The notes: generated from the letters alone by a model not told the origin. Counted from the first letter of the stretch, positions 16,716 to 59,512 are shown. The stretch is DNA of 64,000 nt from Gemmatimonadota bacterium (GCA_031401495.1 JANNRQ010000021.1:99-64098), one strand, 5' to 3'. A program made the numbers and translations.

Positions 16716-16775
16716 CCGGGTGCGTAGCACCCGGCCGAGAACGTTGATCGGGCGGCCGAAGGCCGCCCGCCGAGA
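16716..16775. repeat. Twin GC-rich hairpins, each followed by GCCGAGAAC (REP-like or terminator-like)
   Basis: CCGGGTGC-gta-GCACCCGG (16716-16734) and GGGCGGCC-gaa-GGCCGCCC (16750-16768) are both perfect 8-bp stems. GCCGAGA occurs at 16734 and 16769, exactly 35 nt (5 x 7) apart. The element lies between two co-directional minus-strand genes. Confidence 0.7.
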
Positions 16776-16785
16776 ACATTTCTAC

Positions 16786-24601: not shown

Positions 24602-26509
24602 TTACGGTAGCGCGAATGTCATGAGTTGCGCCGGCATCGTTGGCTGACGCCCAACCCAAAACGCGACGTACTGCTTGCCGTTGATCATGTACGTCATCGG
24701 CTGACTCCCGACGGAGCCGGGCAGCGGGATGTCCGCAATGCGCTCGCCGGTCTTCTTGTCGAACACGTGCAGCGGCCCGATGCTGCCGTAGCCCTCGGCC
24801 GCGAACAGCAACGTCTTGGTGGCCATCACCATGGGGCGCGTGCGCGCGCCGGTGTTGGGGATGTTCAGCCCCGCGAGCGCCGGATGATTCTTGATGCTGG
24901 CCGGCGTGTCGCCGCCGGGCACCTGCCACACGAGGTCGCCCTGGTTCATGTCCAGCGCGGTGATGCGGTTGTACGGCGGCTTGAGGAACGGAAGACCATC
25001 AAGGTTTGGCAGGCCACCGCCACCCATGACGTAGCGCATGTCTGACCGCGCGGAATCGTTCGCGAGCCCAAAGTTGCTTGGGTTGGTGAACGAGCCGACG
25101 TACAGCATTCCGGTCTCTGGATCAAACGCACCGTGCTCCCAATTGGCGCCGCCGACTGAGCCGGGCACGCTGATCGTGCCGCGAGTGCTGTCAGGTGCGC
25201 CGATGACCGATGGGGGCGTCCACAGCTGGCCCAAGCGATATGGTTTGATCGCCTCGAGCGCCTGCGCGCGAAGCGCCGGCGTGAAGTCGATGAGGTCGTT
25301 CACCGTAACGCCCTGAAGGTCGAACGCGGGCGGCTTCGTCGGATGGGGCTGGGTCGCGGCGGTACGTTCGCCGGGCACGTCGGTCTGCGGCACCGGCTTG
25401 TCGACGATGGGCCACACGGGCTTTCCGGTGACGCGGTCGAACACGTACACCCAATTCTGTTTCGTGATCTGACCGACGGCTTCGATCCTGCGCCCGTCCA
25501 CGGTGATGTCCATTAGCACCGGCGCTGTGGGATTGTCCCGGTCCCACACGTCGTGCTTCACGATCTGGAAATGCCAGAGGCGCTTGCCGGTCTTTGCGTC
25601 GAGCGCGACGAGCGAGGACGAAAACAAGTCGTCACCCGGGCGGTGCCCGCCGTAGTAGTCGCCGGTGGCGCCCTCAACGGGGAGGTACACGATGCCGCGC
25701 CGCGCGTCCGCGCTCATCGGCGCCCACACACCCGCGTTGCCGGTGTATTCGGCCGACCCCTCGAGCCATGTGTCGTTGCCGAACTCGCCTTTCTGCGGAA
25801 TGGTGTTGAAGCGCCACTTGAGCGCGCCGGTCTTCACGTCGAACGCCATCACGCGTCCCGGCGTGTTGCGCATCGACGTCGGACGACTGCCTTCCAGCAG
25901 CGCCGGCGGAATCACGACAACGTCGCCGACGACGAGCGGCGGGGAGCTGTTGCCAATCGTGGCGCTGTCGAGGTTGATGTTGGGGACGCCGAGGTTGGCC
26001 TTGAGGTCCACGATACCGCCGGTGCCGAACGATTCGATCGGCGTGCCGGTGGCCGCGTCAAGCGCGACGAGGAAGAATCCAGGCGTGATGGTGAAGATCC
26101 GCGCTGAGCGGCTGTCGCTCCAATAGCCCACGCCGCGCCCCGCACCTTTGCGCGGCGCCATCCGGAAGCGCACGTCGGAGTCAGCGGTGTTCAAGTAGCG
26201 CCACTTCTCGGCGCCAGTCGCCGCGTCGAGCGCGATGACAGTGCGGCGCTGCCCAGTGGTGATGTACAGAACGCCGCCGATCATGAGCGGCGTGTTCTCG
26301 TTCTTGAATTCGGAGTCGCGCGTGGCGGCCGTATCCGACTTCCACGTCCACGCCATCGTTAGCGTTGCGACGTTGGCGCGACTGATCTGGTCCAGCGGCG
26401 AGTAGCGCGTCGCGGCCAGGTCACGGTGATAGTGCGGCCACTCGCCGGGCAGGTTCTGCGCGCCGACGATGACCGGTAGGGCGAAAACAAGGATGAGGCT
26501 GCGTCTCAT
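24602..26509 (-). CDS. PQQ-dependent dehydrogenase (glucose/quinate/shikimate-type propeller), secreted
   Basis: Signal peptide present. WPHYHRDLAATRYSPLDQISRANVATLTMAW is the typical N-terminus of quinoprotein dehydrogenases. Propeller W-motif repeats run throughout the protein. Confidence 0.85.
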   Translation of the reverse strand: MRRSLILVFALPVIVGAQNLPGEWPHYHRDLAATRYSPLDQISRANVATLTMAWTWKSDTAATRDSEFKNENTPLMIGGVLYITTGQRRTVIALDAATGAEKWRYLNTADSDVRFRMAPRKGAGRGVGYWSDSRSARIFTITPGFFLVALDAATGTPIESFGTGGIVDLKANLGVPNINLDSATIGNSSPPLVVGDVVVIPPALLEGSRPTSMRNTPGRVMAFDVKTGALKWRFNTIPQKGEFGNDTWLEGSAEYTGNAGVWAPMSADARRGIVYLPVEGATGDYYGGHRPGDDLFSSSLVALDAKTGKRLWHFQIVKHDVWDRDNPTAPVLMDITVDGRRIEAVGQITKQNWVYVFDRVTGKPVWPIVDKPVPQTDVPGERTAATQPHPTKPPAFDLQGVTVNDLIDFTPALRAQALEAIKPYRLGQLWTPPSVIGAPDSTRGTISVPGSVGGANWEHGAFDPETGMLYVGSFTNPSNFGLANDSARSDMRYVMGGGGLPNLDGLPFLKPPYNRITALDMNQGDLVWQVPGGDTPASIKNHPALAGLNIPNTGARTRPMVMATKTLLFAAEGYGSIGPLHVFDKKTGERIADIPLPGSVGSQPMTYMINGKQYVAFWVGRQPTMPAQLMTFALP

Positions 26510-26512
26510 AGT

Positions 26513-26582
26513 GCGGAGAGGTTACTGCGGAGAGCAGCAACACGCGAGCCGAAAGCCGGGAGCCGGGAGCCGAGAGCATATT
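26513..26582 (+). repeat. Degenerate tandem heptanucleotide array (about 10 units, core GCCGAAA GCCGGGA GCCGGGA GCCGAGA)
   Basis: Reading in 7-nt steps from 26513 gives GCGGAGA GGTTACT GCGGAGA GCAGCAA CACGCGA GCCGAAA GCCGGGA GCCGGGA GCCGAGA GCATATT. The array is intergenic and starts 4 nt from the PQQ dehydrogenase start codon. Confidence 0.8.
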
Positions 26583-40416: not shown

Positions 40417-40461
40417 GAGAGCCTCCGTGCTTGGTGCATCGTGCTTCATAGGTGCGAGTCA

Positions 40462-40486
40462 ACGAAGCACGAAGCACGAAGCACGA
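40462..40486 (+). repeat. Tandem heptanucleotide repeat (ACGAAGC x 3.5)
   Basis: ACGAAGC ACGAAGC ACGAAGC ACGA fills most of the gap between the MATE stop (40487) and the DUF2461 gene. Complementary GTGCTT(C) copies lie at 40441-40447 and 40427-40432, the latter abutting the SD. Confidence 0.85.
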
Positions 40487-46987: not shown

Positions 46988-47074
46988 ACCGGATCGTCGT
47001 CCCCATTCCGTGGTGACGACTTGCGATCCGCATTGCACCGGCGTGTCTGCGACAACGGCCCAGCTTGGGATGCA

Positions 47075-47974
47075 ATGCCAGTCGCCATACACACAACTGA
47101 AAGCAGTCGCAGCCTGATCACTCGTCCGACCGGTGCGCCGGTGGTCGTCGTGCTCGGCGGGATTTCCGCGAGCCGAGACGCCCGCAGCTGGTGGCCGGCG
47201 ATCGTGGGACACAAGCGCGCGGTGGACACACGCGGCTTTCGCGTGGTCGGCATGGATTGGCTCGACGGCGGCGAGGGTCGCGACGGCCGTCCGTTACGCG
47301 CGATCTCGACGCACGACCAAGCCGACGCACTCGCGGCGGTGCTCGACGAGCACGAGGTCCAGTCGCTGCACGCCATTGTCGGCGCGTCGTACGGCGGCAT
47401 GGTCGCGTTGGCGTTTGCGGATCGCTATCCGACGCGTGTCGAGCACGTGGTGGCCATCAGCGCACCAGCGCGCGCGCACCCGATGTCCACCGCGCTGCGA
47501 TCGATCCAGCGCCGCATCGTGGAACTCGGGCTCGAGACCGGTCGCGGTCGCGACGCGCTTGCAATCGCCCGGGGCCTCGCAATGACGACCTACCGGTCTG
47601 CGGAGGAATTCGGAGAGCGGTTCGCCGAAAGCCGAGACCCGAGAGCCGAGCGCTGTTCGGTCGAGAACTATTTGAAGCATCACGGTGGAAAGTTCGTCGA
47701 CGTGATGTCACCGGCGCGGTTTCTCGCGCTCTCGCATTCGGCAGACGCACACAGCGTCGATCCCACCCGCATTGCGACGCGCGCGACGTTTGTCGCTGCC
47801 CGCGGCGACACGATCGTGCCTATCGCGCAAATGGACGAACTTGCGGCGCGTTGGGCTGGCACGAGCCGCCTGATCGAGCTGCCAGCGCGCACCGGTCACG
47901 ATGCTTTTCTCGCGGAACCCGAACTCATTGGTCCCGTCCTCTACGACTCACTCAACGAGCCTGCCTTCACATGA
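47075..47974 (+). CDS. metX: Homoserine O-acyltransferase (MetX-type alpha/beta hydrolase)
   Basis: Nucleophile elbow GASYGGMVALAF, C-terminal HDAFL, and length and operon context with a CGS-like gene. The ATG at 47075 is preferred over the TTG at 47021. Acetyl versus succinyl specificity cannot be read from the sequence. Confidence 0.8.
   Translation: MPVAIHTTESSRSLITRPTGAPVVVVLGGISASRDARSWWPAIVGHKRAVDTRGFRVVGMDWLDGGEGRDGRPLRAISTHDQADALAAVLDEHEVQSLHAIVGASYGGMVALAFADRYPTRVEHVVAISAPARAHPMSTALRSIQRRIVELGLETGRGRDALAIARGLAMTTYRSAEEFGERFAESRDPRAERCSVENYLKHHGGKFVDVMSPARFLALSHSADAHSVDPTRIATRATFVAARGDTIVPIAQMDELAARWAGTSRLIELPARTGHDAFLAEPELIGPVLYDSLNEPAFT
47624..47651 (+). repeat. In-frame heptanucleotide repeat inside metX (GCCGAAA GCCGAGA CCCGAGA GCCGAGC)
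   Basis: Four 7-nt units, translated as AESRDPRAE. The unit family is the same as the intergenic array at 26548-26575. Confidence 0.7.
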
Positions 47975-50352
47975 GCCACGAACTCAGCAGCATCACGCGC
48001 ACGGTGCGCGCCGGAATCGCCAAGGACCGCGAGCACGGCGCGGTCGTTCCGCCGATTCATCTCACGTCCACGTTCGCCTTCGAGTCGTTCGGCAAGCCGA
48101 GGCGGTTCGACTACACACGCAGCGGCAACCCGACGCGGACGCAATTGGCGGACGCGATCGCCGAACTCGAGCACGGTGTCGGCGCTGTGGTCACCAGCAC
48201 CGGCATGAGCGCGGTAGGACTGGTGCTGGCGCTCGCACGGCCGGGCGACGTGGTGATAGCGGCGCACGATTGCTATGGGGGAACCCAACGCTTGCTGAGG
48301 GCGTTGGCGGGGAAAGGGCAGTTCGACCTTCGGTTTGTCGATCTGACGGCAGACCCAAGACCCAAGACCCAAGACCCAAGACCCAAGTTGGACCTCAGTG
48401 GGGCGAGGATTGTGTGGATCGAAACACCCAGCAATCCGCTGCTGCGCATCACGGACATCCGGCGGATATGCGCGGCGGCGCATGAGGCCGGGGCGCTCGC
48501 GGTCGTCGACAACACCTTCCTCTCTCCGGCGCTGCAGCAACCGCTCGCACTGGGCGCGGATATCGTCGTGCACTCCACCACGAAGTATCTCAACGGACAC
48601 AGTGACGTCGTCGGCGGCGCGGTGATCGCGCGTGACCTGGCGCTGCATGAGGAGCTGGCGTGGTGGGCGAACGCGACCGGGGTCACCGGCGCGCCGTTCG
48701 ACAGTTTTCTCACGCTGCGCGGGATTCGCACGCTGTTCCCGCGCATCAAGCAACACGAAGCCAATGCGGCGGTGGTGGTCGAAGCGCTCGTGAAGCACCC
48801 GGCCGTCGCCCGCGTCTACTACCCCGGCCTCGCCTCGCACCCGGGACACGAGATCGCGCGAGAACAGCAGGCGGGCTTCGGCGCGATGCTCAGCTTTGAA
48901 CTCGCCGCAGGTCCTGCCGCCGTTGAACCGTTCACCAGCGCGCTGCGCTGCTTCACGCTCGCGGAGTCACTTGGCGGCGTCGAGAGCCTCGTCGCGCATC
49001 CGGCCACCATGACCCACGCGTCCATGAGCGTCGAAGCCCGCGCCGCCGCTGGAATATCAGAATCGCTCGTTCGTCTCTCCGTAGGTACGGAAGACGCAGC
49101 CGACCTCGTTCACGACCTGCTCGCCGCACTCGATGCCGCGCATGCCGCCGCCGTCTCGGGTCTCGGGTCTCGGGTCTTGGGTCTTGGGTCTCACGTGTCC
49201 GACGCGAAACGCCGGCAACAAACCGACGTTGTTTTGCTCGGGGTCGGCTCCATTGGTCGCGAGCTGTTGAGTCAGCTCTCGTCATTTGGCGCAGGCTTCC
49301 GTGTCTGCGGCTTGGTGGACCGGTCCGGCTACGTCTTCGACGCAAACGGTATCGCGTCGGAGCGTCTCGTTGAGTTGAGCGACATCAAGGAGCGTGGTGG
49401 CAAGCTCGCCGAGACGGCGACCGGTGTCGTCGCCAACGCGGTGCAGGCTTTGGAACACATCGGTGCCAGTGCGCTGTGGCGTCCGATTCTCGTGGATGCA
49501 ACCGCTGCCGACACCACGGACGTCCTGGACCGTGCGCTCTCGCACGGGTGGGATGTCGTGCTCGCGAACAAAGTGCCGCTCGCGGCCGGCCTTGAATCCG
49601 CGGAACGGCTGTGGCGGCGCGCGCGCTTGCACGGTCGGCGCATCCTGCACGAGGCCACGGTCGGAGCCGGCCTGCCGGTGATCGACACCCTGCGGAAACT
49701 TCAGGAGGCCGGGGACAAGATCCTATCTATAGAAGGGTGCCCCAGCGGGACCCTTGGCTTCATATTCGGAGAACTGGGTCGGGGACGCAGCTTTTCCGAC
49801 GCGATCCGGGCCGCGGTGTCTGCCGGATACACCGAACCTGATCCGCGCGCAGATCTCTCGGGGCTCGATGTGGCGCGCAAGGCGCTCATCCTCGCGCGCC
49901 TCGTCGGCTACCGTGGAGATCTGGGCAGTATCGCGGTCGAGTCGCTGGTCCCGCGCGCGCTCAGTGACATTCCACGCGACCAGTTCCTCGAGCGCGTGAG
50001 CGAGGCAGACCCGCAGTGGCGCGCGCGCGTGGAATCCGCGCGCAATCGTGGCGTGGTAATGCGCTACCGCGCGCGCGCCACAGCGACGTCCGTGTCCGTC
50101 GGGCTGGTCGAAGTTGACGAGTCCGACCCGCTGAGCACGTTGCAGGGAACGGACAACCAGTTCTCGTTCGTAACCGAGCGGTATCGCGAACAGCCTCTGG
50201 TGATACGCGGCCCCGGAGCCGGGCCAGCAGTCACGGCCGCTGGAGTCTTCAACGACCTGCTCCGGCTGGCCTCCGAACGGGGAAGCGAACCCAGGTCGCG
50301 GACGGCGAAAGCGTACCGAGCCAGACCGGCAACTGCAACCTCCACGGCCTGA
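47971..50352 (+). CDS. Fusion protein: cystathionine gamma-synthase/O-acylhomoserine sulfhydrylase-like PLP enzyme (N) plus ThrA/MetL-type homoserine dehydrogenase (C)
   Basis: The ATG overlaps the metX stop (ATGA). The N-domain has the PLP-lysine motif HSTTKYLNGHSDVVGG and C-terminal LVRLSVGTED. After a Gly/Ser/Leu linker come a Rossmann motif VVLLGVGSIGRE, EATVGAGLPVIDTL, GTLGFIFGEL and GYTEPDPRADLSGLDVARKALILARL, all typical of homoserine dehydrogenase. The first 780 nt of the 1053-aa ORF in the track is an out-of-frame overlap with metX and is not counted. Confidence 0.85.
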   Translation: MSHELSSITRTVRAGIAKDREHGAVVPPIHLTSTFAFESFGKPRRFDYTRSGNPTRTQLADAIAELEHGVGAVVTSTGMSAVGLVLALARPGDVVIAAHDCYGGTQRLLRALAGKGQFDLRFVDLTADPRPKTQDPRPKLDLSGARIVWIETPSNPLLRITDIRRICAAAHEAGALAVVDNTFLSPALQQPLALGADIVVHSTTKYLNGHSDVVGGAVIARDLALHEELAWWANATGVTGAPFDSFLTLRGIRTLFPRIKQHEANAAVVVEALVKHPAVARVYYPGLASHPGHEIAREQQAGFGAMLSFELAAGPAAVEPFTSALRCFTLAESLGGVESLVAHPATMTHASMSVEARAAAGISESLVRLSVGTEDAADLVHDLLAALDAAHAAAVSGLGSRVLGLGSHVSDAKRRQQTDVVLLGVGSIGRELLSQLSSFGAGFRVCGLVDRSGYVFDANGIASERLVELSDIKERGGKLAETATGVVANAVQALEHIGASALWRPILVDATAADTTDVLDRALSHGWDVVLANKVPLAAGLESAERLWRRARLHGRRILHEATVGAGLPVIDTLRKLQEAGDKILSIEGCPSGTLGFIFGELGRGRSFSDAIRAAVSAGYTEPDPRADLSGLDVARKALILARLVGYRGDLGSIAVESLVPRALSDIPRDQFLERVSEADPQWRARVESARNRGVVMRYRARATATSVSVGLVEVDESDPLSTLQGTDNQFSFVTERYREQPLVIRGPGAGPAVTAAGVFNDLLRLASERGSEPRSRTAKAYRARPATATSTA
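48351..48387 (+). repeat. In-frame tandem heptanucleotide repeat (AGACCCA x 5.3) inside the PLP domain
   Basis: AGACCCA AGACCCA AGACCCA AGACCCA AGACCCA AG, translated as DPRPKTQDPRPK. Confidence 0.9.
49153..49194 (+). repeat. In-frame tandem heptanucleotide repeat (GTCTCGG x3, GTCTTGG x2, GTCTCAC) in the inter-domain linker; reverse complement of the 48351 family
   Basis: Six 7-nt units, translated as VSGLGSRVLGLGSH. CTTGGGTCTTGGGTCT is the exact reverse complement of part of the 48351-48387 array. Confidence 0.9.
49726..49735 (+). other. TCTATAGAAG motif copy 3 (TCTATAGAAGGG)
   Basis: Exact 10-mer inside the homoserine dehydrogenase domain. It is read as CTA TCT ATA GAA (L-S-I-E), three consecutive A/T-ending codons expected to be rare in a high-GC genome. 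Confidence 0.9.
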
Positions 50353-56089: not shown

Positions 56090-59000
56090 ATGCGCTCAAT
56101 GCTTCGCGTCATCCCGTCGGCACTGCTCGCCCTCCCGCTTGCCCTCTCGGCTCAGGGCACCGTGGCCCAGGAGTTCGGCAAACTCCACTTCCGCTCGATC
56201 GGACCGGCCACAATGTCCGGCCGCATCTCGGACGTCGCGGTCTACGAAGCCAATCCGGCCATCTACTACGTCGGCACCGCGCACGGCGGTGTGTGGAAGA
56301 CGACGAACAACGGCGCGACGTTCGAGGCACAGTTCCAGGACATGGGCCTGATGTCCATCGGTGACGTCGCGGTCTCGCAGTCGAATCCGGACCTGGTCTG
56401 GGTCGGCACCGGCGAGTCGAACAACCGCCAGTCCGGATCGTGGGGCAGCGGCATCTACAAGTCCACGGACGGCGGCAAGACGTACGCGTTCATGGGCCTG
56501 CCGAACTCGAAGCACATCCACGACATCGTCATCCACCCCACCAACAATGACGTCGTGGTGGTCGCGGCGACGGGCGCGCTGTACGGCCCGGGCGGCGACC
56601 GCGGCGTTTACAAGACCACCGACGGCGGACGCACATGGAAGCACGTGCTCCGCGTTGACGACGAGACGGGCGCCAACGACGCGACGTACTCACTGAGCGA
56701 TCCCAACGTCATGTTCGCGACGACGTATCAGCGACGTCGCAGCGCGTGCTGCATGAACGGCGGCGGTCCCGGCAGCGGCATCTGGAAGTCGACAGACGGC
56801 GGCGAGACGTGGAACCGACTCTCCGGCAACGGTCTGCCGGCCGGCCCGCTCGGACGCATCGCGGTTGATGTGTACCGCAAGAACGGCAGCACGGTGTACG
56901 CGCTGATCGAAGGGCCTGGCGGCGCTGGTGGCCCCGGTGGCCCCGGTGGCCCCGGTGGCCCCGGTGGCGGTGGCGGGGGTGGTGGCGGAGGTGGCGCAAA
57001 CGCTGCGCCGAATGCGTTGCCCACGGGCGTCTATCGCTCGAATGACGGCGGCGCCACGTGGACCAAGACGAGCAACGTCAATCCGCGCCCGATGTACTTC
57101 AGCAAGGTCCGCATCGACCCGAACAATCCAGAGCGGATCATGGCCGGCGGCGTGGGCATGCAACTCTCAGTGGACGGCGGCAAGACGTTCGAGACGGATG
57201 CGTCGTTCGCCATTCATGACGACGTGCACGCGATCTGGATCAACCCGGCCAATTCGAACCACGTCCTGATCGGCAACGACGGCGGACTCGGCGTCTCATA
57301 CGACTTCGCCAAGCACTGGATCTTCATTCCCAACCTTCCGGTCGGGCTGTTCTATCACGTCGGCTTCGACATGGAAACGCCGTACAACATTTGCGGCGGC
57401 ATGCAGGACAACTACAACTGGTGCGGACCGAGCGCGGTGCGCATGGGTCGGGGCATCAACAACTACGACTGGTTCCAGATTCAGGGCGGCGACGGCTTCG
57501 TCGCTATTCCGGACCAGCGCGATTCGCGTTGGATCTACACGGAGTCGCAGGACGGAAACATGACGCGCCGCAACAAGGTGACCGGTGAGTCGAAGTCGAT
57601 CCGGCCCGCGGCGCAAAACGTGACCAATCACGTGGCGGGCGAGGCGTATCGCTTCCATTGGGACTCGCCGATGATCTTCTCGCCGAATGATCCGGGCGTA
57701 CTGCTGGTCGCGGCCAATCGCGTGTTCCGTTCGCGTGACCGCGGCGATTCGTGGGAAGCCATCAGCCCGGATCTCACCACGAATGAGGTGCGCGATTCCA
57801 TCGTGACGATGGGGCAGAAGAACGCGGAGCATCGCATCGCACGGAACGACGGCATCTCGCAGTGGCCGGCCATCGTTGCACTGGCGGAATCGCCGCGGCA
57901 GGGTGGCGTCTTCTATGCGGGCACCGATGACGGCACCGTCAGCGTGTCGCGCGACAACGGCAAGACGTGGACCAACATCACGAAAAACCTGCCGGGTTTC
58001 CCGGCGGGGCACGCGTTTGTGTCTGAAGTGGTACCGTCGCGCTATGCCGCCGGCACCGTGTACGTCACGGTCGAAAACCACCGGCTCAACGACTACGCGC
58101 CGTACGCTTGGGTCAGCACGGACTTCGGCGCCACGTTCCGCAGCATCACGAGCGGACTGGCCGGAGAAGTGGTGCGTACCCTGACGGAAGACACGAAGAA
58201 TCAGGATGTGCTGTACGTCGGCACCGAGACGGGCATCTTCCTCTCGCTCGATCGCGGCGCCACGTGGCGTCGCCTCAAAGGCCGCAGTTTCCCGGACGTG
58301 CGCGTTGACGAACTGACGATCCATCCGCGCGAGAACGCGCTGCTGGTCGCGTCGCACGGTCGCGCGCTATGGGTGTTGGACCATCTCGAACCGATCCAGG
58401 AGTATCGCGCCGCATCGATGGCGGCGACGTCCAAGCTCTTCACGCCCGGTCCGTCGCTCCAGTGGAAGTCGCTCGACAACCGGAACGACGAGTTCTGGGG
58501 ACACCAGACCTTCATGGGCGAGAACCCGCCGACGGAGACGGTGATCCAGATGCACATCAAGGCACCGCTCACCAACCCTGCGCTTCGCATCAGTGACGCA
58601 GCGGGCAAGGTGATTCGCGACGTCGCGATTCCGGCTGCCAAGAACATCGCTGGCATGCACACCCAATGTTGGGACCAGCGCACTGAGCCGATCACGCCGC
58701 TCGCTGGTGGCGGCGGTCCGGGCGCTGGTCCGGGCGGCGGTGGCGGCGGTGGCGGCGGTGGCGGCGGCGGTGGTGCACGCCCGATCGAGGGCTATCCGGC
58801 GCCACTCCCGGTGTCGGGCTACAAGCCACAGAACCCGTGCGCGGCTGCCGCGGGTGGCGGCGGACCGGGCGGTGGTGGCGGTGGCTTCGGTGGCGGAGGC
58901 GGAGGCAACCAGGGCCCGCTCGTCATGCCGGGCAACTACACGGTAGCACTCATGTCCGATGGCAAGGTCGTGGACACCAAGCCACTCACCATCGTCATGG

Positions 59001-59512
59001 ATCCGGCGATCACGCTGACGGGTCCGGCGCGTGCGCGTTACAACGCGTTGGTCGCGGACCTGCATGAACTCCAGCGCCGTGCCACCGAGGCGGCGCGTCC
59101 GCTTGCGGCGCTGGCGCCTGAAGTCGTGACGACGGGAGCCAAAGTGGACTCGACGTCACTTTCCGATGTGAAGGCTGAGTGGGCTGCGTTCCGCAAGGAC
59201 TTCGACGCGGTGCGCGCCAAGTTCGGCGTCGGCGGCGGTGCAGGCCCGGGCTTCGGCGGTGGCGGTGGTGGTGGCGGCGGTGGTGCAGCCGCTCAAGCTG
59301 CGGCCGCGGCCAACGCGCTCGGCCGGGTCGGCGCGCTCAAGGGCGCCATCATGGGCATTTGGGAAACGCCCAGCGATGGCACCATGAAGCAGGTGGACGC
59401 GGCGCGTGCTGCGCTCAACACTGCGCTTGGTGAAGTCGCGCCAATCGTGGCGCGTGCCAAGGCGATGAGCGCCAGGCTCCAAGCGACTGGGGTGGCGTTT
59501 AAGGTGCAGTAG
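56090..59512 (+). CDS. Secreted BNR/Asp-box repeat, sortilin-Vps10/GH74-like double-propeller protein with four poly-Gly inserts
   Basis: Signal peptide MRSMLRVIPSALLALPLALSAQG. Repeated S.DGG.TW Asp-box motifs occur (STDGGKTY, TTDGGRTW, STDGGETW, SNDGGATW, SVDGGKTF, SRDNGKTW, SLDRGATW). Low-complexity Gly runs are encoded near 56915-57000, 58700-58790, 58850-58915 and 59230-59300. Confidence 0.85.
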   Translation: MRSMLRVIPSALLALPLALSAQGTVAQEFGKLHFRSIGPATMSGRISDVAVYEANPAIYYVGTAHGGVWKTTNNGATFEAQFQDMGLMSIGDVAVSQSNPDLVWVGTGESNNRQSGSWGSGIYKSTDGGKTYAFMGLPNSKHIHDIVIHPTNNDVVVVAATGALYGPGGDRGVYKTTDGGRTWKHVLRVDDETGANDATYSLSDPNVMFATTYQRRRSACCMNGGGPGSGIWKSTDGGETWNRLSGNGLPAGPLGRIAVDVYRKNGSTVYALIEGPGGAGGPGGPGGPGGPGGGGGGGGGGGANAAPNALPTGVYRSNDGGATWTKTSNVNPRPMYFSKVRIDPNNPERIMAGGVGMQLSVDGGKTFETDASFAIHDDVHAIWINPANSNHVLIGNDGGLGVSYDFAKHWIFIPNLPVGLFYHVGFDMETPYNICGGMQDNYNWCGPSAVRMGRGINNYDWFQIQGGDGFVAIPDQRDSRWIYTESQDGNMTRRNKVTGESKSIRPAAQNVTNHVAGEAYRFHWDSPMIFSPNDPGVLLVAANRVFRSRDRGDSWEAISPDLTTNEVRDSIVTMGQKNAEHRIARNDGISQWPAIVALAESPRQGGVFYAGTDDGTVSVSRDNGKTWTNITKNLPGFPAGHAFVSEVVPSRYAAGTVYVTVENHRLNDYAPYAWVSTDFGATFRSITSGLAGEVVRTLTEDTKNQDVLYVGTETGIFLSLDRGATWRRLKGRSFPDVRVDELTIHPRENALLVASHGRALWVLDHLEPIQEYRAASMAATSKLFTPGPSLQWKSLDNRNDEFWGHQTFMGENPPTETVIQMHIKAPLTNPALRISDAAGKVIRDVAIPAAKNIAGMHTQCWDQRTEPITPLAGGGGPGAGPGGGGGGGGGGGGGGARPIEGYPAPLPVSGYKPQNPCAAAAGGGGPGGGGGGFGGGGGGNQGPLVMPGNYTVALMSDGKVVDTKPLTIVMDPAITLTGPARARYNALVADLHELQRRATEAARPLAALAPEVVTTGAKVDSTSLSDVKAEWAAFRKDFDAVRAKFGVGGGAGPGFGGGGGGGGGGAAAQAAAAANALGRVGALKGAIMGIWETPSDGTMKQVDAARAALNTALGEVAPIVARAKAMSARLQATGVAFKVQ
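56927..56995 (+). repeat. Tandem 9-nt repeat (GGTGGCCCC x4) running into a GGN tract
   Basis: GGT GGC CCC x4 followed by GGT GGC GGT GGC GGG GGT GGT GGC GGA GGT GGC. It encodes (GGP)4 followed by about 11 Gly. Confidence 0.85.

Follow-up and report, generated by a model that had tools for sequence, protein, structure and literature searches.

Among the long simple sequence repeats (SSRs) of many bacteria, above all those with large genomes of more than 60% G+C, heptanucleotide SSRs were reported in 2007 to show the strongest over-representation (as relayed in PMC4692102 and PMC4679880), and polymerase slippage was proposed to account for them (Mrazek, Guo and Shah 2007, as cited in the same two papers). 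In these secondary accounts, the long SSRs, with units of 5-11 nt, lie mostly between genes and were found in Burkholderia, Xanthomonas, Actinobacteria, and Cyanobacteria. Here, we describe three heptamer arrays that lie in frame within two neighboring genes, metX and a metB-hom fusion, on a 64,000-nt stretch of DNA from a Gemmatimonadota bacterium (GCA_031401495.1, JANNRQ010000021.1:99-64098), referred to below as the window, from whose start all array coordinates are counted. We favor the explanation, with a probability of roughly 70%, that the arrays are heptanucleotide SSRs that arose in one Gemmatimonadaceae clade at protein segments tolerant of them.

As far as the long-SSR class is described in those accounts, the present arrays share its head-to-tail 7-nt units, its enrichment of period 7 over neighboring periods, the presence of many different units within one genome, a probably free-living bacterial host (≈64% G+C), and a proposed origin by slippage (Mrazek, Guo and Shah 2007). 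The class itself is therefore already known, and the suggestion in the original prediction that such repeats had not been described for high-GC genomes is not supported, since heptamer SSRs have been reported for large genomes above 60% G+C (PMC4692102 and PMC4679880, relaying the 2007 work). What is new here is the phylum, Gemmatimonadota, together with the in-frame coding location and an orthologous persistence accompanied by homogenization. The published class is predominantly intergenic, a tendency that the three coding arrays do not follow, although two further arrays in the window are intergenic; the coding arrays sit in frame in housekeeping genes, are retained at orthologous positions, and have been homogenized without change in length.

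The short tandemly repeated repetitive (STRR) sequences of heterocystous cyanobacteria have CCCCAGT, TTGGTCA, or CAACAGT as units. The units found here are AGACCCA, GTCTCGG, and GCCGAGA, in Gemmatimonadaceae, so that the resemblance to STRR sequences noted earlier is apt insofar as all are heptamers and the two main arrays are of the G3N4 type, but does not extend to membership, as both units and organism differ. The G3N4 heptamers of Xanthomonas (GGGNATC) and Nostoc (GGGGA(C/T)T, of the cyanobacterial STRR type) form G-quadruplexes (G4) in vitro, are mostly intergenic and under-represented in open reading frames (ORFs), prefer four units, and have been judged unlikely to mediate phase variation (PMC4692102). 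The TAACTGA repeats of marine Beggiatoaceae and Cyanobacteria occur in 2-6 or more copies of one fixed AT-rich unit that carries stop codons; almost all are intergenic, and they are proposed translation regulators (PMC4679880). They resemble the arrays described here in being direct heptamers with a patchy distribution across phyla, some of them just upstream of starts, whereas the present arrays have GC-rich units without stop codons on either strand and are translated.

Heptamer arrays within metX and metB-hom

The G+C content is 63-70% along the window. The product of metX matches NCBIfam NF006449 with 303.7 bits (cut-off 296), and its start was set at the Met codon at 47075 by alignment with five orthologs, the mechanical ORF beginning with TTG at 47021. 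The metX stop overlaps the start of metB-hom (ATGA), which encodes a fusion of cystathionine γ-synthase (CGS; residues 8-388) and homoserine dehydrogenase (about residues 413-768) that matches TIGR02080 with 557 bits (cut-off 504.55). A homolog search for the fusion protein returned Gemmatimonadaceae from soil and groundwater metagenomes, throughout which the MetB-Hom fusion occurs; the cluster containing the window's own protein has one member, on one contig, in the collections searched. Direct reading and Tandem Repeats Finder (TRF) located the arrays as follows, the second of them in the pyridoxal phosphate (PLP) domain of the fusion protein.

47075..47974, plus strand: metX, homoserine O-succinyltransferase (NF006449, Pfam Abhydrolase_1, ortholog alignment)
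47624..47651, plus strand: array 1, read by eye as GCCGAAA GCCGAGA CCCGAGA GCCGAGC; imperfect, in a variable-length loop of MetX
47974..50352, plus strand: metB-hom fusion gene, 792 residues (TIGR02080, PF01053, PF03447, PF00742)
48351..48387, plus strand: array 2, (AGACCCA)x5.3, 100% matches in TRF; surface loop of the PLP domain
49153..49192, plus strand: array 3, (GTCTCGG)3(GTCTTGG)2GTCTC, in TRF GTCTCGG x5.7 with 93% matches; linker between MetB and Hom

The translations of arrays 1-3, FAESRDPRAERC, TADPRPKTQDPRPKLDL, and AAVSGLGSRVLGLGSHV, lie in the reading frames of the two genes, and the arrays occupy codons 184-193 or so of about 299 in metX and codons 126-138 and 394-406 of the 792 in metB-hom. 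Array 1, with the peptide ..AESRDPRAE.., is the weakest of the three and appears in TRF as CCGAGAC x2.7 at 47632-47650 (score 31). Array 2 encodes DPRPKTQDPRPK and reads (GGGTCTT)5 on the minus strand, and array 3 encodes VSGLGSRVLGLGS. At least three head-to-tail near-perfect 7-nt copies, the definition of the class, are clearly present in arrays 2 and 3 and more weakly in array 1 (x2.7 to x4, imperfect). Arrays 2 and 3 together form an inverted repeat with 42-nt arms that are 88% complementary and 767 nt apart. Two features of the original prediction, that the arrays are real and in frame and that arrays 2 and 3 are reverse complements of one another, are thus confirmed. An assembly artefact is ruled out because independent JGI, ENA, and NCBI assemblies have heptamer arrays at the same sites.

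Both metB-hom arrays fall in segments that are predicted to be disordered. In an AlphaFold2 model built from a 39-sequence alignment (mean predicted local distance difference test score, pLDDT, 81.7), residues 123-144, which hold the array 2 loop, are coil, with pLDDT below 50 at residues 131-136; linker residues 400-409 are likewise coil and also score below 50. In the protein alignment, array 2 occupies a variable loop that follows a strand ending in DLT, and array 3 lies in the inter-domain linker, a hypervariable segment in every homolog. The CGS structure 6LD9, which is the best PDB match, reads DLT-DPRSLADALAQSPK where the window protein has DLTADPRPKTQDPRPKLDLSGAR, and because of this correspondence array 2 may have grown from local Asp-Pro-Arg (DPR) codons.

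The same two segments have also received unrelated DNA. In one relative (L134), a hairpin resembling a repetitive extragenic palindromic (REP) element, for example GTCATCCCGAGCGCAGCGAGGGATCTGCAG, lies in frame at the same PLP loop and again in the linker and is translated as GVIPSAARDLQL or HSERSEESA. The PLP loop and the linker thus serve as landing pads for repetitive DNA. Similar peptides (SEARDL, HPERSEGSA, and PRFARDDRS) occur in P0108 and P0079.

Orthologous sites and the evolution of the arrays

We compared the window with the DNA of five loci at 74-87% amino acid identity and of 80 further metagenome loci. In the relatives at 74-87% identity, the three sites likewise hold heptamer arrays, though degenerate ones. 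The PLP-domain loop measures 63-69 nt in the window's clade, where lengths vary by 3 or 6 nt only, versus 45 nt in about 65 more distant relatives; this 18-24 nt shorter loop shows no lag-7 signal in those relatives. As had been anticipated, the PLP-domain insert is therefore lineage-specific. Lag-7 scores at this site lie between 15 and 21 out of 21 in most clade members: the window reaches 21/21, L001-L004, L127, and L128 score 17-19, and L005 and L126 score 12-15. In register, array 2 reads GACCCAA x5, and its counterparts read GACCCAA GACCCAA GACCGAA GACCAAA GACCGAA in L001, GACCTTA GACCGGA GACCATA GACCATA GAAAAAA in L002, and GACCCAG GACCCAA GGCCCAA GACTCAA AGCCCAA in L004, with the same in-register pattern in L003, L127, and L128. 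All clade members have about five units at this site. Taken together, the alignments indicate that the PLP-domain insert is old and orthologous within the clade.

The linker units are of the GGTCTCN type in the window, L001, L005, and L148 and of the GAGTCAC type in L002 and L004; L003 has an inverted pair there, (TCTCGGC)3 ... (GCCGAGA)4, and L127 about nine CCGTCAT units. The MetX site spans 45-90 nt across six taxa, with (GCCGAGA)x7.6 in L003. All array units at the three sites are one-step variants of the family SCCRAGA. A separate group of loci, L157-L176 (≈73% identity to the window protein), has a MetB-Hom segment of mostly 71-86 nt (77 nt in eight loci), a length that is not a multiple of 3. 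Because the L157 segment contains a stop codon, metB and hom appear in that locus to be two genes that overlap and are not fused.

Periodicity survives in most of these lineages despite nearly saturated synonymous change: window and relatives are 70-79% identical in overall nucleotide sequence, and only 47-52% of their four-fold sites are identical. Neighboring units share derived changes in L003 (TGGGGAC x2 followed by CGGAGAC x2) and in L002 (GACCATA x2), and TRF finds a 14-nt super-period in L001 and L128. The shared derived changes point to the copying of units within arrays, with no net change in length. Arrays have decayed to background in L005 and L126, and the perfect arrays of the window are probably best read as recently homogenized.

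We propose that replication slippage, the presumed origin of the heptamer SSR class, gave rise to arrays of one family (SCCRAGA, with reverse complement TCTYGGS and core GACC/GGTC) in one Gemmatimonadaceae clade, and that these would have grown at three permissive sites, the MetX loop, the PLP-domain surface loop, and the inter-domain linker. Translated in frame into short, disordered peptides that are hydrophilic or rich in Gly and Ser, the arrays would persist because the protein segments that host them tolerate such peptides. Later change would consist of point substitution and of unit copying inside the array, with only frame-keeping outcomes surviving, which would leave decayed arrays in some lineages and freshly homogenized, perfect ones in the window. 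The presence and orthology of the arrays, their clade-specific insertion, their position in low-confidence coil, the period-7 excess, and the derived changes shared by adjacent units are observed directly; slippage as the source of the arrays and neutrality as the mode of persistence are inferred.

Several observations weigh against this account. Across all lineages, almost every unit retains the GACC core, whereas the 3-nt tail is variable, and divergence in the array does not exceed the gene average (33/37 positions identical between the window and L001, compared with 0.78 gene-wide); since a fully neutral loop should decay faster, some constraint or biased copying is at work. A slippage event is never seen directly, and unit number at the PLP site never differs between taxa. 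Coding DNA is under-represented among the locations of published heptamer SSRs (PMC4692102), which makes it unusual to find three arrays in a single gene pair. Lastly, L126 and L148 share 99.5% identity over 4683 nt, but of the 24 mismatches between them, 15 lie inside a 90-nt linker region with the heptamer array (L126 4518-4607), with no change in length. This cluster is not explained by simple slippage and could reflect gene conversion, a mutation hot spot, or a mixed-strain assembly artefact.

Arrays elsewhere in the window and in other phyla

Repeats of period 7 are in strong excess, both in the window and in its relatives. The window contains three exact period-7 runs of at least three copies, compared with 0.0 in Markov shuffles, and no exact runs of at least three copies at periods 5, 6, 8, or 10-13. 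For a wider count, we joined the window to 103 kb from five related loci. In the resulting 167 kb, a lag scan found nine regions with at least 18/21 matches at lag 7 and none at lags 4, 5, 8, 10, 11, or 13, two intergenic runs of about 100 N (L004 3690-3797 and 8371-8478), which mimic perfect periodicity in such scans, being left out. TRF returned 23 rows of period 7 in the same set and 9, 5, 5, and 1 at periods 8, 10, 11, and 13. Outside the arrays, GAGACC, CCGAGAC, GCCGAGA, and other units occur singly in the window at the frequency expected from a third-order Markov model, and we rejected on these grounds the idea of a dispersed motif. We likewise set aside the possibility that the units survive because none of their six frames contains a stop codon; the units do have this property, but it does not discriminate because 50% of all heptamers share it.

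Two intergenic heptamer features lie elsewhere in the window.

26546..26577, strand not assigned: intergenic array, GAGCCGA x4.6, 84% matches (TRF), of the array 1 unit family
40425..40486, minus strand: inverted intergenic heptamer pair, (TCGTGCT)3.6 at 40486-40462 and a degenerate (AAGCACG)3 at 40449-40425

The first lies upstream of gene 24602-26509, which is on the minus strand, at a distance of 37 nt from its start. The second includes a perfect intergenic array at 40462-40486 (ACGAAGC x3.6 in TRF) that was absent from the earlier list, and RNA folding predicts that it forms a hairpin of -42.5 kcal/mol (z = -5.3), which fills the gap between co-directional genes and ends just 5' of a GGAGG Shine-Dalgarno sequence. 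By its position and predicted fold, this hairpin could be an intercistronic stabilizer or attenuator. The original prediction held that the unit family recurs in intergenic DNA at two places; 26546-26577 is a true array, but the copies at 16734/16769 are not tandem. The 16730-16780 region has only two separate copies of GCCGAGAAC, one on either side of the GC-rich hairpin GGGCGGCCGAAGGCCGCCC, and looks like a terminator with short direct repeats.

Repeats of other kinds are found further downstream. At 56915-56996, 58702-58770, and 59254-59285, 9-nt and 3-nt repeats (GGTGGCCCC and GGCGGCGGT) encode poly-Gly or GPGG tracts inside a 1140-residue secreted ORF (56090-59512), and one of these, on its minus strand, supplies the remaining one of the three canonical G4 motifs in the window. 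Among the relatives, a GGTCTYG-family array lies at the extreme 5' end of an unrelated hypothetical gene in L002 (17191-17223) and at the orthologous position in L001 (18300-18328).

When (CCRAGAC)3 was sought by a pattern scan in 185,579 species genomes, arrays of at least three units came up on at least 120 contigs (L006-L125 among the matches listed), where we estimate that chance would give about two, often with several contigs per genome, as in Acidobacteriota CAVZGT01, Thermoguttaceae JBKQVT01, and Vicinamibacterales DAIRFN01. Among the matches listed, these are mainly Acidobacteriota, Planctomycetota, Verrucomicrobiota, Gemmatimonadales, and Omnitrophota. In 870 kb of these listed matches, TRF found 233 period-7 arrays compared with 31, 15, 17, and 17 at periods 8, 10, 11, and 13. 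In about 118 of these arrays the unit is not one that was searched for and, as noted, single units are not enriched in the window; it is therefore the period that is special and not one unit sequence. The excess of 7-nt tracts that had been predicted is borne out in the window, in its relatives, and in other phyla by Markov shuffles, lag scans, and TRF counts. By ORF length and G+C at third codon positions, 227 arrays of the listed matches divide into 47 likely coding, 47 likely non-coding, and 133 ambiguous, a classification too crude to yield a rate; several of the "coding" calls are wrong-frame ORFs, and at least L013, in a loop (AQVPSPKSQAPSPKSQ...) between the membrane domains of a membrane protein, and L028 look truly coding by eye.

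Competing explanations and implications

A first alternative is that selection acts on the peptides, the repeats having been favored for a longer flexible loop and linker that benefit the fused enzyme. Tandem repeats that create disordered regions are documented in proteins of Borg elements, where, in the portion of that account drawn on here (PMC9879509), nucleotide repeats within ORFs add disordered low-complexity segments much as they do in metX and metB-hom. In the same portion, the Borg repeats belong to archaeal extrachromosomal elements, are recently formed, and arose independently, whereas the arrays described here are old and orthologous, have a 7-nt unit, and are in frame only as whole arrays. 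In favor of a benefit at the peptide level, the length of the loop extension varies little across the clade, the array evolves at about the gene average rather than faster, and the encoded peptides are Pro/charged or Gly/Ser-rich and predicted to be coil. The peptide sequences at the array 2 site differ widely between relatives, however (DPRPKTQDPRPK, VDLRPETIDHRKK, NSRPETGDWGPETG, and TDGRTQAGDRSPEP), most of the family lacks the extension, and the same heptamer family also builds intergenic arrays. The unrelated REP-like element at the same sites in L134 argues for tolerance rather than need, and we regard peptide-level adaptation as unlikely.

It is also rather unlikely, in our judgment, that the arrays are cis-elements under active maintenance and not tolerated junk. 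What can be cited for this is the retention of the 7-nt register and of the GACC/GGTC core at orthologous coding sites despite saturated synonymous sites, as well as the spread of unit-family arrays over at least 120 contigs that include Acidobacteriota, Planctomycetota, Verrucomicrobiota, and Gemmatimonadota. Maintenance could reflect a sequence-specific process, such as a protein that binds single-stranded nucleic acid every heptamer, a pacing of translation by a G4 or hairpin where the domains meet, or dedicated repeat copying.

Still less probable is a functional nucleic acid structure, either an mRNA duplex between arrays 2 and 3 or G-quadruplexes, that modulates transcription, mRNA stability, or ribosome pausing where the two domains join. 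The G4 version would involve (GGGUCUY)5 in the linker mRNA and (GGGTCTT)5 in the template strand. Two of the three canonical G4 motifs in the 64 kb are indeed supplied by array 2 (minus strand) and array 3 (plus strand), and related G3N4 heptamers form G4 in vitro (PMC4692102). As in the Xanthomonas and Nostoc repeats, the window has G3N4 units, inverted hairpin-capable pairs, and no surface or virulence link, and arrays 2 and 3 each have five G3 tracts with 4-nt loops. At least four consecutive G3-bearing units are found in arrays 2 and 3 and not in array 1 or the intergenic arrays. In contrast to those repeats, the unit and phylum are different, the arrays lie mid-gene, and the G3 tracts are not kept in orthologs: in the orthologous arrays of L001, L002, L003, and L005, G3 tracts are absent or too few to reach four, and further arrays in these genomes (GCCGAGA, GAGTCAC, and ACGAAGC) cannot form G4.

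The duplex version begins from a strong prediction in the window. Minimum free energy and centroid folds of naked RNA pair arrays 2 and 3, as the original prediction had envisaged, and the window duplex reaches -87.9 kcal/mol (z = -8.8 compared with shuffled partners); the intergenic arrays at 40425-40486 form a strong hairpin, and the GACC/GGTC core is conserved. The fold of the whole region, however, is only marginally better than shuffles (z = -1.95), and ribosomes would be expected to unwind a duplex spanning 770 nt with both arms in a translated ORF. To examine covariation, duplex energies were calculated for each of the 10 x 10 pairings that ten taxa allow between one site and the other. 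Cognate pairing was no better than non-cognate in L002, L003, L004, L127, and L128, and the permutation p of 0.02 was driven by the window alone, so that there is no robust covariation. Shuffled partners were beaten only in the window and, more weakly, in L001, L126, L005, and L148, with the cognate combination not consistently the best; complementarity was absent in L002, L004, L127, and L128. We therefore rejected conserved pairing of arrays 2 and 3, and the functional mRNA duplex proposed earlier is not upheld. If the arrays are tolerated SSRs, both their complementarity and their G4 potential would be by-products of one unit family present in opposite orientations.

Contingency loci of Haemophilus, Neisseria, and Campylobacter are SSRs whose unit number is polymorphic between strains, located in the 5' coding regions or promoters of surface or restriction-modification genes in small low-GC genomes. 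The met arrays share with them a coding SSR whose unit is not a multiple of three, such that, as was originally suggested, gain or loss of one 7-nt unit would shift the frame of metX or metB-hom, which could switch methionine biosynthesis on and off in a subpopulation; neither the polymorphism, nor the 5' or promoter location in surface genes, nor, at 63-70% G+C, the small low-GC genome is seen here. Although arrays 2 and 3, perfect or near-perfect with 5-6 units, are a possible slippage substrate, units have been copied within arrays of relatives, and the MetX site varies in length among species, we consider such switching very improbable: every clade member has about five units at the PLP site with loop differences of 3 or 6 nt, every recovered homolog is in frame, the tracts lie mid-gene in housekeeping biosynthetic enzymes, the arrays are degenerate in most relatives and degenerate arrays slip poorly, and Rehm et al. 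were likewise negative for heptamers beside metabolic genes (PMC4692102). Neither unit-number polymorphism nor an out-of-frame allele was seen in the two near-identical pairs of relatives, L004/L145 (99.9% identical, arrays identical) and L126/L148 (99.5%, equal lengths), the species of the window being represented by one contig.

These arrays extend the still unexplained bacterial heptamer excess to Gemmatimonadota and, by the pattern scan, to Acidobacteriota, Planctomycetota, and Verrucomicrobiota as well. For annotation, they carry a warning: low-complexity peptides such as DPRPKTQ and GLGSRVS in metagenome-assembled genomes can be translated SSRs, and such tracts are potential sites of frameshift errors in assemblies. 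The fixed, orthologous positions of the arrays in conserved enzymes amount to a natural experiment in which birth, homogenization, and decay can be followed against a known scaffold, and the history of these arrays could help to separate polymerase slippage from a functional explanation.

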